Assembly (NCBI GenBank): GCA_964016885.1
Contig: OZ024748.1
Span: 48,112,001-48,176,000 of the forward strand
DNA: 64,000 nt
Source of the DNA: Eledone cirrhosa
Taxonomy: Eukaryota
Reading direction: 5' to 3'
The position numbers and the translations under genes are program-made. Shown one piece after another: positions 22,088 to 57,523 of the stretch; the first letter of the stretch is position 1, and each line of letters opens with the position of its first letter. The notes under the pieces are model-generated. The model saw nothing but the letters and a program-made list of their open reading frames with translations. It was not told the DNA's origin and ran no database searches.

Positions 22088-22381
22088 ATTAGAAAATAGA
22101 AGCTTTCACAGTATTTTTTGACTAAAAAAATTTTAGCCTGATAGTGGGGTTTAGAACCCTCAGAGAAATGGGAAAAGATGAGTACTGACATACATGGGAG
22201 TCGAAACCACATCTTTACAATGTGTAATGGTAGCACAGTGGTCTGGATAACCAAAGATGTGGGTTCGACTCCCATGTACGTTAATACTCATCTTTTCCCA
22301 TTTCTCTGAGGGTTCTAAACCCCACTATCAGGCTAAAATTTCTTTAGTCAAAAAATATGGTGGAAACTTCTATTTTCTAAT
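22088..22381. repeat. Fold-back (about 130-bp inverted arms) built from a tRNA-derived element
   Basis: Arms 22088-22216 and 22253-22381. The spacer and right arm carry A box TAGCACAGTGG and B box GGTTCGACTC. (TA)n flanks. Confidence 0.85.
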
Positions 22382-26897: not shown

Positions 26898-29800
26898 TAT
26901 AAAAAAAACGATGTTATAAGCTTTTCTGGGTGGGAAACGACGATGGGCTGGGTGGAGTAGGAATCATGGTAGCAGAAAAGTGGGCAGATAAGATAATAGA
27001 CGTAAATAGAGTGACCGACAGAATAATTAAAATACGACTTGTCCTCAATAGAACTACGGTGACAGTAATATCTGCGTACGCACCCCAATCCGGACTGCCC
27101 GGCACTATAAAAGACAGATTCTATGAGACACTGATGCTAACTACCTCCCAAATATCCGACAGTGACTATATAATTATCGCAGGCGACCTAAATGGTCACG
27201 TTGGACAACATTGTGACGGCTACGACGAAATCCATGGAGGCTATGGGTTTGGTACTAGAAATGAGGAAGGCTCCAGAATCCTGGAATTCTGTGATGCAAA
27301 TAACCTAACTATCTGTAACACTAACTTCAAAAAACGTGACAATCACTTGATCACCTATAGATCCGGGGAACACACAAGCCAGGTAGATTATATCCTTACC
27401 AGAAGACGTGACAGAGTGTCTGTTGTAAACACTAAATCCCTCCCCCATGAAGAATGCACCTCCCAACATAGACTGATAATTAGCGACCTCATAGTCAGGA
27501 CGAGACGTACTCGACAACAGAAGAGGACTATCCTCAGGAGGAAAATATGGAAGCTAAAGGACCCCACAGCCAGGAATAAATTTCAAAGCATATTACTTGA
27601 TGCTTTCGACAGTAAGGAAGAACATTTAGAGTCGGACAATATAGAGGGAGAGTGGGAATTTCTGAAAGCAAACCTGCTGTTGGCGACAGACGAAGTCTGT
27701 GGCTGGAGCAGGCCTGTAGGCAGGAGGAGAGTAACATGGTGGTGGAACAGTAAGGTGGAGGGGTCAATTAAGGCCAAAAAGCAGGCTTGGAAAGTATGGC
27801 GGGATGGGGGAAGTAGAGAGGACTATCAAGTGGCCAGGAGGGAAGCTAGGAGACAAGTGTACTTAGCAAGAAGGGAAGCTGAGGAAAGAAAGTTCAAGCA
27901 TGTTCTACAACGCGATGACCAAAAACGTGAGGTGTTCAGGATTGCTAGGCAATGCGTCAAGGAAAACCGTGATATTGTCGGGGAGAAGTGTGTACTAAAC
28001 GACGATGGCACACTTGCCATCACCGACGCTGATAAGAAGGTAGCTTGGAAGTGTCACTATGAAAGGCTACTAAATGAGGAGAATAATTGGGAGAAAGGCA
28101 GTCTCCCCCATATCGACCCAATAGAGGGACCAGCAGTGTTAGTCGAGGGGAGTATAATAAGTAAGGCAATCAAGGATATGAAGACGGGTAAGGCGGCTGG
28201 GCCTTCGGAAATAGTTGCTGAGATGCTGAAGGCATCTGGCACGGTGGGACACACCATGGTCACCCGCATAGTTAACCAAGTCGTACAGAATGGGGTTGTT
28301 CCGAAGGACTGGCATAGCAGCATCATCGTTAACTGTTATAAGGGTAAAGGAGACGCCCTAGATAGGAGTAACTATAGAGGCATTAAATTAATCGACCAGG
28401 TCATGAAGGTCACGGAAAAAGTAATAGCGCAACTAATCAGAGAGAGAATTGACCTAGATGAAATGCAGTTCGGGTTTGTGTCAGGCAAAAGTACCACAGA
28501 CGCTCTTTTCATAGTACGACAACTACAGGAGAAGTACCTAGCTAAAGGTAAACCCCTCTACTTAGCTTTTGTCGACTTGGAGAAAGCCTTCGACAGAGTC
28601 CCCCGCTCCATTATCTGGTGGGCTCTTAGAAAACTAGGCGTTGACGAATGGCTTGTGAGGGCTATACAAGCCATGTATAAAGAAACAGTCAGCAAGGTTA
28701 GAATTAACAACAAATATAGTGAAGAGTTTAGCGTAAAAGTTGGCGTCCATCAGGGCTCTGTTCTCAGCCCACTACTATTTATTATTGCCCTTCAGGCTAT
28801 AACAGAGGAGTTCAAGACAGGCTGCCCATGGGAACTCCTATACGCAGACGACCTGACACTCATAGCGGAATCAATGGCCGAGCTAGAGAAGAAATTCCAA
28901 ACATGGAAGCACGGCCTAGAGTCAAAAGGACTTAAAATTAACCTGGCTAAGACCAAAGTACTAGTTTGTAGGAAAGAAAACAAGGCGGCGGTCCCTTCTG
29001 GGAAATGGTCGTGCTCGGTGTGTAGGAAAGGCGTAGGTAGAAACTCCATTTTATGTCCTAAATGCAAAGTATGGGTGCATAAAAGATGTAGTGGGATCAC
29101 AGGTAAGCTAACTAAGAACATAGATTTTACATGTGGCCGGTGCTCTGGTGCAATAAGTAGCAGCAAGTGCCCACAAACTACTAGCTCTTTCAATTGCGCA
29201 GAGGGTTCTATAGAAATAGTGGACAGCTTCCGTTACCTGGGCGATAAAATCAGCAGTGGGGGAGGGTGCTCTGAAAGTACTGTAGCTAGAGTCAGAACTG
29301 GTTGGAAAAAGTTCAGAGAGCTTATACCACTATTAGCTGCTAAAGGGTTCTCACTAAAAATGAAAGGCAGGTTGTACGATGCCTGCATACGAACAGCAAT
29401 GCTGCATGGCAGTGAGACCTGGGCATTGTGTGCAGAGGATATACGCAGACTAGAGAGGAACGAAGCTTGCATGCTCCGCTGGATGTGTAACAGTAATATA
29501 CGTGAACGGCAAAGCATAAACGAACTAAGGAAAAAATTAGAGATAAGAGGGATCAGATGTTGTTTACTCGAGAGAAGGCTACGTTGGTATGGACACGTGA
29601 TGCGCATGAAAGTCGATAGCTGTATAACAAAGTGCAGGGCAATAAAGATAGACGGTAGTCACGGAATAGGCAGACCTAGAAAAACCTGGGACGAGCTGAT
29701 AAACTCCGACATCACACACTTACACCTCTCCAAGACAATGTCACTGGACCGAGACCTTTGGCGGTACTCAGTAACAGAGAAGACCCGCCTTACCTAAATA

Positions 29801-38269: not shown

Positions 38270-38393
38270 TTAAGATTCAGTGAGTTTCTCTCGAATAATC
38301 TTCACTGCTTCATCACGGTTGATCATCTTATTGGCTTTTCCTTGGTAACGTCCCTTCTTGCCAGCACCTTTACCATCAAGAATTTTTGCAACA
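38270..38393 (-). CDS. AARSD1: Terminal coding exon of AARSD1-like gene
   Basis: Acceptor TTTACTTTTATATTTTGGTAG; (S)VAKILDGKGAGKKGRYQGKANKMINRDEAVKIIREKLTES*, resembling the AARSD1 C-terminus 'VAEVLEGKGAGKKGRFQGKATKM' (recalled); TAA at 38270-38272. Confidence 0.92.
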
Positions 38394-38525
38394 CTACCAA
38401 AATATAAAAGTAAACAAAAAGAAATATAATTATTTACATTCATACATGAACCCACATACACACACATTTATATATTAACTGTATATAATTATTTACATAC
38501 ATGAACACACACACACATATATATA

Positions 38526-42120: not shown

Positions 42121-42164
<44 letters not shown>

Positions 42165-42321
42165 TGGAATAAATGCTCTGAAATAGCGATATATATGTGA
42201 ATATAGACATAGAATATTCGAAAATATTCTGTATGTTTATAATAAACATTTTGAAGACCTAATCGCTATAGAATAGAATACGTCACGTATTACAATTAGA
42301 TTCTCGACAAAAGCAAGGGAA

Positions 42322-42364
42322 GTAATCTACGCGTTTCATTCTCGTTAGAAATCATCAGGACTAC
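42322..42364 (-). ncRNA. Type-I hammerhead ribozyme (monomer copy 1)
   Basis: GUAGUC-CUGAUGA-UUUCU(AACG)AGAAU-GAAA-CGCG-UA^GAUUAC; intact core with palindromic ACGCGU stem III. Confidence 0.8.
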
Positions 42365-42631
42365 ATATCCAGTGCTTTTATCGAGAATGACACAGCTAGA
42401 GACTTATAGAATACTTAGCTGTGTACAGGAACTGGTTTGAAAGAGCGGTTGCCGGTCCGGCAGAAATTAGAAATTGGAATAAATGCTCTGAAATAGCGAT
42501 ATATATGTGAATATAGACATAGAATATTCGAAAATATTCTGTATGTTTATAATAAACATTTTGAAGACCTAATCGCTATAGAATAGAATACGTCACGTAT
42601 TACAATTAGATTCTCGACAAAAGCAAGGGAA

Positions 42632-42674
42632 GTAATCTACGCGTTTCATTCTCGTTAGAAATCATCAGGACTAC
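42632..42674 (-). ncRNA. Type-I hammerhead ribozyme (monomer copy 2)
   Basis: Identical to 42322-42364, 310 bp away. Confidence 0.8.
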
Positions 42675-43018
42675 ATATCCAGTGCTTTTATCGAGAATGA
42701 CACAGCTAGAGACTTATAGAATACTTAGCTGTGTACAGGAACTGGTTTGAAAGAGCGGTTGCCGGTCCGGCAGAAATTAGAAATTGGAATAAATGCTCTG
42801 AAATAGCGATATATATGTGAATATAGACATAGAATATTCGAAAATATTCTGTATGTTTATAATAAACATTTTGAAGACCTAATCGCTATAGAATAGAATA
42901 CGTCACGTATTACAATTAGATTCTCGACAAAAGCAAGGGAAGTAATCTACGCGTTTCATTCTCGTTAAGTATTCTATAAGTCTCTAGCTGTGTCATTCTC
43001 GATAAAAGCACTGGATAT

Positions 43019-43061
43019 GTAGTCCTGATGATTTCTAACGAGAATGAAACGCGTAGATTAC
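43019..43061 (+). ncRNA. Type-I hammerhead ribozyme (inverted copy)
   Basis: GTAGTCCTGATGATTTCTAACGAGAATGAAACGCGTAGATTAC on the + strand. Confidence 0.8.
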
Positions 43062-43354
43062 TTCCCTTGCTTTTGTCGAGAATCTAATTGTAATACGTGA
43101 CGTATTCTATTCTATAGCGATTAGGTCTTCAAAATGTTTATTATAAACATACAGAATATTTTCGAATATTCTATGTCTATATTCATATATATATATATAA
43201 GTATGTATAAGTAACAGCCGTACTAAGAGTGGGAAATGAAATTTCGTTTCATTTTTTTCCATCTATATATATATGATTTATTTCCCTTACATTTGGAAAA
43301 CTTGCTTATCTCCCTTGATGTTAGATTTGTTTACATTTAACTATTTTCACTATG

Positions 43355-43749: not shown

Positions 43750-44920
43750 CTATAACATCAGATATCTCTCTTTCTATTTATTCCTCAAGTCTGTCTGGAT
43801 GAGACAGACAGGGAGTTGAAAAGGAACTCCTTGAAAGGTACTCACTGCATGATAATTAAAAGCTCACACCAAGGGAAATCACCCAGCAATACTGCAGCGA
43901 ATCCATGGATGAAAAACTGCATGCTTATCAGCAAAAAATCATGCATGGATATGCTGGAAGTTCCAGAGTGAGAGTAATATAGATAAACAAAGCAGTCTAT
44001 CTTGGACCAACGGCCACTATATTGGCTCCCACTTTGAAGGATATACTTTTGCAATCAAAGAACAGGAAATCAACACAAAATACCTGATTCACAAAAGAGA
44101 TAGGGATGCAGGCAAAACACCTAGATGTGATAACAAGTGCAAACTGTAGAATTAACATCTGTCACCCATATCATAAGCAGCTGTCCAAAGATATCACCAC
44201 GATATTATCTACCTATGAGGCATGATGTAGTGGCCAAAACACTGTACAGTGCAATCCATAGAAAAGATAGCCCCGACAATAATCACATTATAAGTTACAG
44301 CAATGTGGAAAATATATCCATACATAATATGAAAGAGTACTGGTGGAATGTTCCAGTAAAATCCCCAATAAAATGCAGGCATAACAAACCAGATATTATG
44401 ATATGGGACAGGGAGAAGAAAGCATGCACAGTAGTGGAAATTAGCTGCCCAGCAGATGCCAATATAATATCAAAGATTAGCGAAAAGGAGAATATTTATG
44501 CAGAACTGATGAGAAATCTGAAGATACTCCACCCTGATTACACCTTCAGATTTATGCCTGTGATTATTGGGGCACTGGGGTATGTTAGTAACTGCCTCAA
44601 TACAAATCTTGAGAAGCTAGGCTTCACAGGAACAGAAAGAACACAACTAGTTAGGAAATTACATTAATGGAACAGTAAAAATATGTAAAACATTCCAAAA
44701 ATGTTGCATCTAATAACTGCATATACACATGTACAGATACAAAGCATATACACATGCACACATACAACTCAAAACATCCACATCCACACATACAATAACA
44801 TCCATATCTACACATGCATGCATGCATACATAATCTACCTAGTTGATGTTGTGTAAATTCCAATGAGAGAGTCTTGTGTCTATTGGGAAAAAATTTGTGA
44901 AATTATAAAACCAGAAGACC
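43750..44920 (+). mobile_element. R4/Dong-like RLE retrotransposon 3' fragment
   Basis: EGYTFAIKEQEI, HIISSCPKI..YYLPMRHD and HNKPDIMIWD..VVEISCP motifs. Confidence 0.8.
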
Positions 44921-48555: not shown

Positions 48556-48558
48556 CAT

Positions 48559-49440
48559 GTGATGACCAATGTAGGTAGAAAGTTCCTAGCCCTTCTAGAT
48601 CTTTACTTCCCTGTAGGCCATAAATATCAACAAATATTAAATTGTCATACAGTGAAAATAGGCTACTCTTGTACCAGTAACATAAAATCCCACATCACCA
48701 ACAAACGCAAAAGCCTTCTGCTTTATAGATGCTTATGCAGAAGGCCAAAAGCATGCACCCCCAGATCAACAGTGCAACACTCCTGCAATGATATATGAAG
48801 TAGAAGTGACCTCCACCAACCAGAACCACCAAACTGAAGCCTGGACTTACGTTGGAATGTCTGAGAGCTGGTCTAAAAGCTGTTTCTTGAACCACAAAAC
48901 AACTTTCAGACATCCTGACAAAAAACATACTACCCTGCTCATGAACCTTGTATGGAAACTCAAAAATAACAGCACAGTATATGGAGTATACTGGAAAAAT
49001 TCACCCTATATCAATGGAACAGAATTTTACCAGCTGTGTAACTCGGAGAAGTGAAATATACTCTCGCAAGTGGCTTCAGGAAAATGTTGCTTAAATACAC
49101 ACCTCAACTGCTTCAGTCACTGTCTTGATGAAGCAAAATTCACTCTGAAAAACTGGTATAGACCAAATTAACAATTTATTTTCTTCAACTTTTCAACTTA
49201 ACTCTTGGACTCCTTGTGTAACACAAGTTGCTTCCCTTTTGTTTTTTTATAGTTACCTCCCTTTACAATTTTCAAGGGAGTTGTTTATTTATAGCTAAAT
49301 TCAAGGTTACCTAACCTTAGAACTCTCCTATAATTTATTAAACCCCCATGTGAGTAGCCATTTTTAATTATAAAGGCTGAATGAGTTGGGGTGAATAATC
49401 GAATGAAACTAAATACCTGTATATGTCACTGTTGTAACTA
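48559..49440 (+). mobile_element. Second Penelope-like family, decayed 3' fragment (linker + GIY-YIG + pseudo-LTR)
   Basis: TNVGRKFL.LLD.YFP..H....ILN.HTVKIGYSC and IYEVEV..TYVGMSE..K....NHKTTF; degenerate hammerhead at ~49374-49418; (TA)n flanks. Confidence 0.78.
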
Positions 49441-57425: not shown

Positions 57426-57523
57426 CTGGGTCCTATATCAGCCACCAGATCTTCTTTGCCAAATAACAAGAATAAACCCAATCCTTTGTCATCTCCACCT
57501 GTCAGGAAAAGTGTCACCTCCTT
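57426..57523 (-). CDS. AARSD1: Penultimate coding exon of AARSD1-like gene
   Basis: Acceptor GGTTTAG and donor GTGAG; 98 bp, phase 0-2. KEVTLFLTGGDDKGLGLFLLFGKEDLVADIGP resembles human 'ETLLFLTVGDEKGGGLFLLAGPPASVETLGP' (recalled). Phases join both neighbouring exons in frame. Confidence 0.9.

Follow-up and report, generated by a model that had tools for sequence, protein, structure and literature searches.

The 310-nt tandem repeat present in the 64,000-nt window (the whole stretch of Eledone cirrhosa DNA that was analysed) is best explained, with a probability of roughly 70%, as one recent insertion of a young, high-copy, non-coding retrozyme into a (TA)n target by a Penelope-like enzyme, probably from a circular monomer RNA, its position within AARSD1 being likely incidental. 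Read from the sequence, this explanation is based on arms lying back to back, on fixed outer ends about 30 nt apart (one of each per insertion), on scattered inner ends and on a single haplotype per locus. The original prediction had described an array resembling non-LTR retrozymes, with type-I hammerheads having a palindromic stem III and a connection to Penelope elements; this part is supported by both the family census and the rule followed by the ends.

At the window locus, a (TA)n target on the left (42129–42159) borders a long arm (42158–42967, ribozyme-sense on the minus strand), in which the period-310 identity extends over 810 bases, i.e. 2.61 units, with 0 mismatches. The inverted copy, or short arm (42966–43194, ribozyme-sense on the plus strand), is 229 nt long and 100% complementary to the array, and a second (TA)n target (43186–43199) is found on the right. 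The 2.6 identical direct copies, the inverted copy (first put at ~225 bp) and the (TA)n borders announced for this locus were all recovered. The two arms meet with a 2-nt overlap at 42966–42967, which is the junction of their 5' ends. In unit numbering, the long arm runs from position 291 (5') to position 170 (3'), and the short arm comprises positions 221–310 and 1–139. A stretch comparable to the Penelope-type "tail" described in PMC8557442 and PMC11167929 (unit positions 140–170; 42158–42188, minus strand) is restricted to the outer end of the long arm, the short arm being devoid of it.

The monomer running from one predicted cut to the next (42328–42637, minus strand) is 310 nt long with a GC content of 0.348. 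Its longest stop-free frame, with a trimer read through, is 59 codons, so the unit carries no ORF, and the RT and GIY-YIG frame of an autonomous Penelope-like element is absent from it. As a circle, the monomer has a predicted fold of -67.8 kcal/mol vs. -48.9 +/- 4.6 kcal/mol for 100 dinucleotide shuffles (z = -4.1).

Each full unit carries a predicted type-I hammerhead motif. On the minus strand, CUGAUGA occurs at 42668 and 42358, with predicted cuts after GUA at 42638/42637 (motif 1, 42632–42674) and 42328/42327 (motif 2, 42322–42364), both motifs being called from the core and the helices. The CUGANGA and GAAA core, a UH cut site and stems I–III in type-I order are present, with a 6-bp stem I, a 4-bp stem II resting on a U.U pair and a 2-bp palindromic stem III (ACGCGU), and, besides stem I, a GGA/UCC extension and a 16-bp helix. 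All these components agree with the original prediction, i.e. the CUGAUGA/GAAA core and GUA of each full unit, the palindromic stem III, stem I, its extension and the long helix, as does the U-U pair at 10.1-11.1 that it had raised as a caveat. The latter is judged minor because the axolotl HHR_Amex2, reported to have U.U at the base of stem II, cleaves (PMC7229834), and because a frequent variant of the 310-nt family converts this pair to A-U. All the hairpin sequences named earlier are present, although the one drawn with a single-nucleotide loop adopts a 6-bp stem and a 3-nt loop when folded. The count of two full ribozymes had to be revised: a third complete motif (43019–43061, plus strand, predicted cut 43055/43056) lies in the inverted arm, and a half hammerhead, with GAAA, stem III, GUA and the 3' strand of stem I but without CUGAUGA, occupies 42942–42967 (minus strand). 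The suggested comparison with hammerhead models had a negative outcome, since the Rfam scan of the element returned no hammerhead match at the gathering score, nor at E ≤ 10, and the motif is therefore called from its core and helices and from the way in which it varies. Rfam matches to miRNA families at the element were rejected, as they correspond to the inverted repeat itself.

As a whole, the ribozyme core pattern has 14,242 exact matches in the genome (0 for the reversed-pattern control), and a DNA search with the unit gave at least 294 near-identical matches, two counts that bear out the copy-number check proposed at the outset. The corresponding ~2,000 loci and 4.4 Mb are estimates, the first 100 core matches falling in 15 loci. 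The family is dispersed over many contigs, as dimers to multimers. Thirty-nine loci were examined, namely the first 15 along one contig (C1) and the 24 best-match loci, the window included, the latter 24 being those behind 150 listed of the 294 near-identical matches. Two arms joined at their 5' ends, with the 3' ends pointing outward, were found in 32 of the 39 loci (11/15 on contig C1 and 21/24 among the best matches), the seven exceptions being six single-armed loci and an atypical one. Arms reach 14–18 units with intact ribozymes. Two two-armed loci, one running off its contig and one meeting a gap, were left out of the end count. In the 30 loci with both ends readable, one outer end always falls at unit position 127–139 and the other at 163–173 (30/30), an outcome that an independent even-odds choice of ends would give at about 1 in 10^9. 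The inner ends are scattered round the unit, without clustering at the cut site. Most element ends lie in (TA)n, where a target-site duplication is unreadable.

Since outer ends at two fixed sites together with an inverted arm match the Penelope tail signature, a Penelope-type enzyme is the likely writer of these insertions. Penelope-like elements are described with an inverted 5'-truncated copy, a 30–40-nt tail at one end and microsatellite targets; in those with an endonuclease, the inverted copy lies next to the 5' end and the tail at one end only (Craig et al. 2021, PMC8557442), as in the present family (inverted 5'-truncated copy in 32/39 loci, one-end tail in 30/30). The Anolis Penelope-like protein, a predicted dimer, is reported to cut and extend both strands and to use two adjacent reverse-transcription starts, the tail being the stretch between them (Frangieh et al. 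2024, PMC11167929). Its start site is not homologous to the cut DNA in that account, whereas both start sites here end in A/T letters able to pair with the (TA)n target. A short palindromic stem III and a predicted action as dimers are also common to the hammerheads of Penelope-like elements (Cervera and de la Pena 2014, PMC4209133). Unlike these elements, the 310-nt family has no ORF, and its arms are many-fold multimers of one short unit.

In the proposed mechanism, tandem arrays would be transcribed, their hammerheads would cut as dimers and a host ligase would close the monomers into circles, inside which a lone dimer-type ribozyme would be inactive. Two reverse transcriptases would then be primed by the two DNA strands of (TA)n, each beginning at one of the two internal sites, and would copy 0.3 to 18 units on their way round the template, the cDNA ends being finally joined by microhomology. 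A fuller version, for which the scales seem evenly balanced, would make each insertion the record of two Penelope reverse transcriptases circling one viroid-like RNA circle from both strands of a cut (TA)n, one per fixed site. Only circles with a working dimer-type ribozyme would found arrays, and the mirror arm would turn host read-through transcripts (AARSD1 in this case) into double-stranded RNA, masking the ribozyme and sparing the gene. Counting against the preferred explanation, hammerheads of this type in Penelope-like elements are reported to cut poorly in vitro (PMC4209133), eight of nine dimers of Xenopus retrozymes failed to cut (10.64898/2026.07.22.740005), and insertion in vitro by the Anolis protein did not need cutting (PMC11167929).

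Concerning the template, a haplotype set of 238 full units from 30 loci was compared (a locus was included if the anchor caught at least one full unit in it). The mean number of differences between units is 0.38 within an arm, 0.39 between the arms of a locus and 2.21 between loci. Each locus has one haplotype, with 15 modal haplotypes in the 30 loci, and the modal haplotype is common to both arms in 17 of 19 loci, the two exceptions being single-unit arms with a private change. A minor variant is carried by 34 of 237 units. A substitution set, built with a body anchor, covered 232 units from 31 loci: all nine distinct array-wide substitutions fall in the ribozyme or its helix, although this anchor failed to catch one locus whose body has two array-wide changes, which the haplotype set does include. 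None of the nine is damaging, vs. 58–70% expected at random, while four of the six single-unit substitutions in the ribozyme or its helix are. Natural variation keeps the hammerhead core and helices in these samples, which were conditioned, one by requiring the core pattern to be intact and the other by resemblance to the unit of the window, so that the no-damage result is favoured by the sampling.

Taken together, the sharing of haplotypes, the spared ribozymes and the length of the arms favour a single monomer circle as the probable template, a dimer-only ribozyme being expected to cut multimers and spare the monomer circle (PMC4209133). The same two-ended Penelope-type insertion could instead have copied a long, uncut linear multimer from an existing array, with a ribozyme that is weak or acts elsewhere. 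Such a template recalls the unprocessed RNA reported as the dominant substrate of the Anolis protein in vitro (PMC11167929) and the autonomous elements of this genome, which likewise form tandems and inverted arms, and it fits the pattern seen at one locus (L031). There, G for A at unit position 20 is confined to the junction-most unit of both arms, the 8th of 8 in one and the 14th of at least 14 in the other. As the affected A is base-paired with U in the 16-bp helix, one possible cause is that a template common to both arms underwent RNA editing late, and the linear mosaic multimer and a circle changed late account for the pattern equally well. We nevertheless regard the linear multimer as unlikely, for arms of up to 14–18 units retain intact ribozymes, the array-wide changes spare the ribozyme, each locus has its one haplotype, and a single minor variant was common to both arms over 56 arm-to-arm unit pairs, where about eight would be expected had both arms been read in register from a multimer just as mosaic. 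An ordinary satellite or an assembly artefact, produced by DNA-level tandem amplification and fold-back inversion with the ribozyme-like motif as a relic, is hardly credible in view of the loci dispersed on many contigs, the variation that keeps the RNA structure and the paired fixed end points, found in 30/30 loci and recurring in two further families, an older sister and an autonomous one. Independent short reads (run X1) add a depth of ~2 × 10^5 on the unit vs. ~3–35 on unique flank bins, which looks genomic and backs the high copy number, together with nine joints of low depth inside the element, such as strand switches would give; the window's own arm junction is spanned by no independent read of this run, which, like the Rfam result, would suit an artefact.

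The original prediction had also placed the array so as to excise a circular RNA from the AARSD1 pre-mRNA. A homology query with the last exon gave Octopus sinensis AARSD1 (85% identity), and mapping with this homologous protein placed three exons on the minus strand (60005–59940, 57520–57428 and 38395–38273); a Pfam tRNA_SAD search of the genome did not recover this AARSD1. As the exons are on the minus strand, the array sits in the last intron (19.0 kb), between the penultimate (57428–57520) and last (38273–38395) coding exons, 3.9–4.2 kb before the latter. The two full minus-strand ribozymes are indeed sense to the gene, as predicted, and the short arm is antisense. This orientation is no evidence of function because every two-armed insertion has a sense arm, and excision from AARSD1 is unsupported as a special feature of what is one of an estimated ~2,000 insertions. 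In addition, the window copy does not differ from the unit that is modal in other young loci and is therefore recent, without sign of co-option. The place in a housekeeping-gene intron is thus likely to be incidental.

In the AARSD1 pre-mRNA, the 229-nt antisense arm precedes the sense arm. The predicted fold of the 1,111-base minus-strand cassette contains a 220-bp perfect duplex covering one full unit, ribozyme included; in three folds containing both full ribozymes, stem I is formed in at most one of them, and in prefix folds the stem I of the first ribozyme forms briefly and is then lost to the antisense arm. As this arm is made first and the duplex is predicted to mask one ribozyme, release of a 310-nt RNA from the pre-mRNA is doubtful; since it needs two cuts and one ribozyme is free at equilibrium, it is predicted to be inefficient, although kinetics could allow some. 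Read-through transcription of AARSD1 is predicted to give mostly a long double-stranded hairpin with one free ribozyme, and a single cut ~4 kb before the last exon could, if fast, lower AARSD1 output, by analogy with fast intronic ribozymes, which can lower splicing, slow ones having no such effect (Fong 2009 as cited in PMC10919898). That the array acts as a promoter-less source of 310-nt circular RNA, its ribozymes affecting AARSD1 output, draws on this analogy, on the two sense ribozymes shortly before the last exon and on the transient stem I; given that both ribozymes are never free together in any fold containing the two, that a sense arm comes with any two-armed copy and that the copy is recent, we find it distinctly improbable, and it would be compatible with the preferred retrozyme insertion as a side effect.

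The CPEB3 intronic ribozyme, which we take to belong to another class than the hammerhead, offers a comparison for this position. Like the motif predicted here, it is a self-cleaving motif sense to the pre-mRNA, a few kb before the next exon, but it is a single conserved ribozyme, as opposed to a recent mobile repeat copy with an antisense arm predicted to mask its ribozyme (PMC10919898).

With the metazoan non-LTR retrozymes (Cervera and de la Pena 2020, PMC7229834; Li, Clavereau and Pollet 2026, 10.64898/2026.07.22.740005), the family has in common a non-coding tandem unit in the range of 150–450 bp, a type-I hammerhead per unit, thousands of copies, a strongly folded predicted circle, a GC content of 35% and co-occurrence with Penelope-like elements. 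Its unit size, low GC, one hammerhead per unit and dispersed multi-copy occurrence are those of such a retrozyme. The circles were shown by northern blot in those papers, whereas here they are predicted. Back-to-back arms, fixed paired ends and per-locus haplotypes, all seen here, do not appear in the passages of the two papers considered, and the word "inverted" occurs 0 times in PMC7229834. Neither two-armed retrozyme arrays nor a hammerhead element from an octopus turned up in the literature search, supplements aside, and those of PMC7229834 (the model of Fig. S9, invertebrate examples) and of the 2026 preprint may bear on this novelty. The publications listed for octopus and hammerhead ribozymes, judged by title or abstract start, contained none on such an element, and no ribozyme passage was found in PMC3365414.

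Candidate enzymes are present in the genome. Intact autonomous Penelope-like elements have frames of 775 and 796 aa, in which Pfam recognises RT and GIY-YIG. Pfam gave no match for the 784- and 1217-aa frames (three queries in all, each matchless), which we assign to Penelope-like elements on motifs and structure; clade names such as Neptune or Nematis are, in our view, suggested by the motifs of the Penelope-like families here. In total, at least four young families with many intact frames of 775, 796, 784 and 1217 aa were observed (L168-L187; L188-L195; L196-L201; L223-L227), and several lie in (TA)n as tandems or inverted arms. In the 784-aa family the hammerhead core is apparently of the U3/A8 kind, and the 775-aa family has an overlapping upstream frame of ~470 aa.

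For another ORF-bearing Penelope-like family (L228-L264), 17,596 hammerhead matches were counted; it carries a TATA-like box ~30 nt upstream, its tail measures ~70 nt, and it obeys the rule of one short and one long end in 8/8 two-armed insertions. As 26 of 28 nt in the ribozyme core and stem II are common to this family and the 310-nt unit, it is, judging from this similarity, the best lead for the possible origin of the ribozyme. The search for a partner Penelope ORF, which the original prediction had called for, was thus only partly successful: ORF-bearing families exist, but only this 28-nt ribozyme stretch matches one of them. By blastn of five ORF-bearing families against the unit, an end region was common to none, and a by-eye reading of the sixth (1217-aa) noted no likeness. 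A match lying beside an endonuclease remnant (L087) was rejected as partner, being a separate insertion of a sister retrozyme. The non-autonomous Chlamys elements such as MRC1, also Penelope-like, resemble the 310-nt family in their multicopy head-to-tail insertions; they differ in that the Chlamys clade is described without canonical hammerheads and in that its elements mostly have a 3' end like that of their autonomous partner, a likeness that the blastn comparison did not find here (PMC8557442).

The sister retrozyme (L087:2552-3188; L155-L163; L118-L147) is older, 320–321 nt long and 75–78% identical to the 310-nt unit over unit positions 59–212. It has the same two end points and two-armed form, a UUGAUAA hammerhead core (U3 with A8) and a 12-nt stem III palindrome that varies yet stays palindromic. 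A third tandem hammerhead family, of 466 nt (L049:1-1550; L106:7600-8400), has short motifs in common with the 310-nt unit near the end region.

The return of animal retrozymes to DNA, by a circle, a Penelope-type enzyme and a tandem cDNA, was proposed before, from co-occurrence and phylogeny, without demonstration in the papers cited (PMC7229834; 10.64898/2026.07.22.740005). To this, the 310-nt family adds a Penelope insertion footprint on a non-coding multimer and per-locus haplotypes pointing to a one-monomer bottleneck. For testing rolling-circle reverse transcription directly, it provides a substrate of known sequence (310 nt), a pair of start sites and a handful of young enzymes to try. 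Moreover, with near-identical mirror arrays totalling an estimated ~4.4 Mb, an octopus-like genome would possess a large supply of double-stranded RNA. The interest of the family is mechanistic, the intronic story being largely incidental, and the AARSD1 copy matters mainly as a test case of whether a mirror arm neutralises an intronic ribozyme.

The unit was also encountered in public sequencing data. Twenty runs, with 18 organism codes, contain more than half of the sampled words from window positions 42160–42780, and of eight runs examined among 24 listed, five hold a single low-depth contig of 331–340 nt nearly identical to the unit (runs X3, X4, X5, X6 and X9; two overlapping pieces in X8). 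Tandem DNA yields contigs of this kind just as circles do, the circle junction being the tandem junction in sequence. No run recorded as RNA was among those listed, which speaks neither for nor against expression. For the presence in runs of so many organism codes, cross-contamination by a high-copy repeat seems the plainest reading. A raw Hi-C run (X24, same organism code as X3) had 0 reads and is not usable as an absence.

Other mobile elements were observed in the window. A LINE at 26903–29797 (plus strand) has a 964-codon open frame with AP endonuclease, RT and PHD finger. By their motifs, we take 48556–49054 (plus strand), adjoining (TA)n, to be a broken remnant of a GIY-YIG-type Penelope-like element, and 43800–44667 (plus strand) to be a broken remnant resembling a LINE with a restriction-like endonuclease, neither remnant having a Pfam match. 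Finally, a partial tRNA-like Rfam match (35.5 bits) at 22222–22275 (plus strand) is possibly the head of a tRNA-derived repeat.
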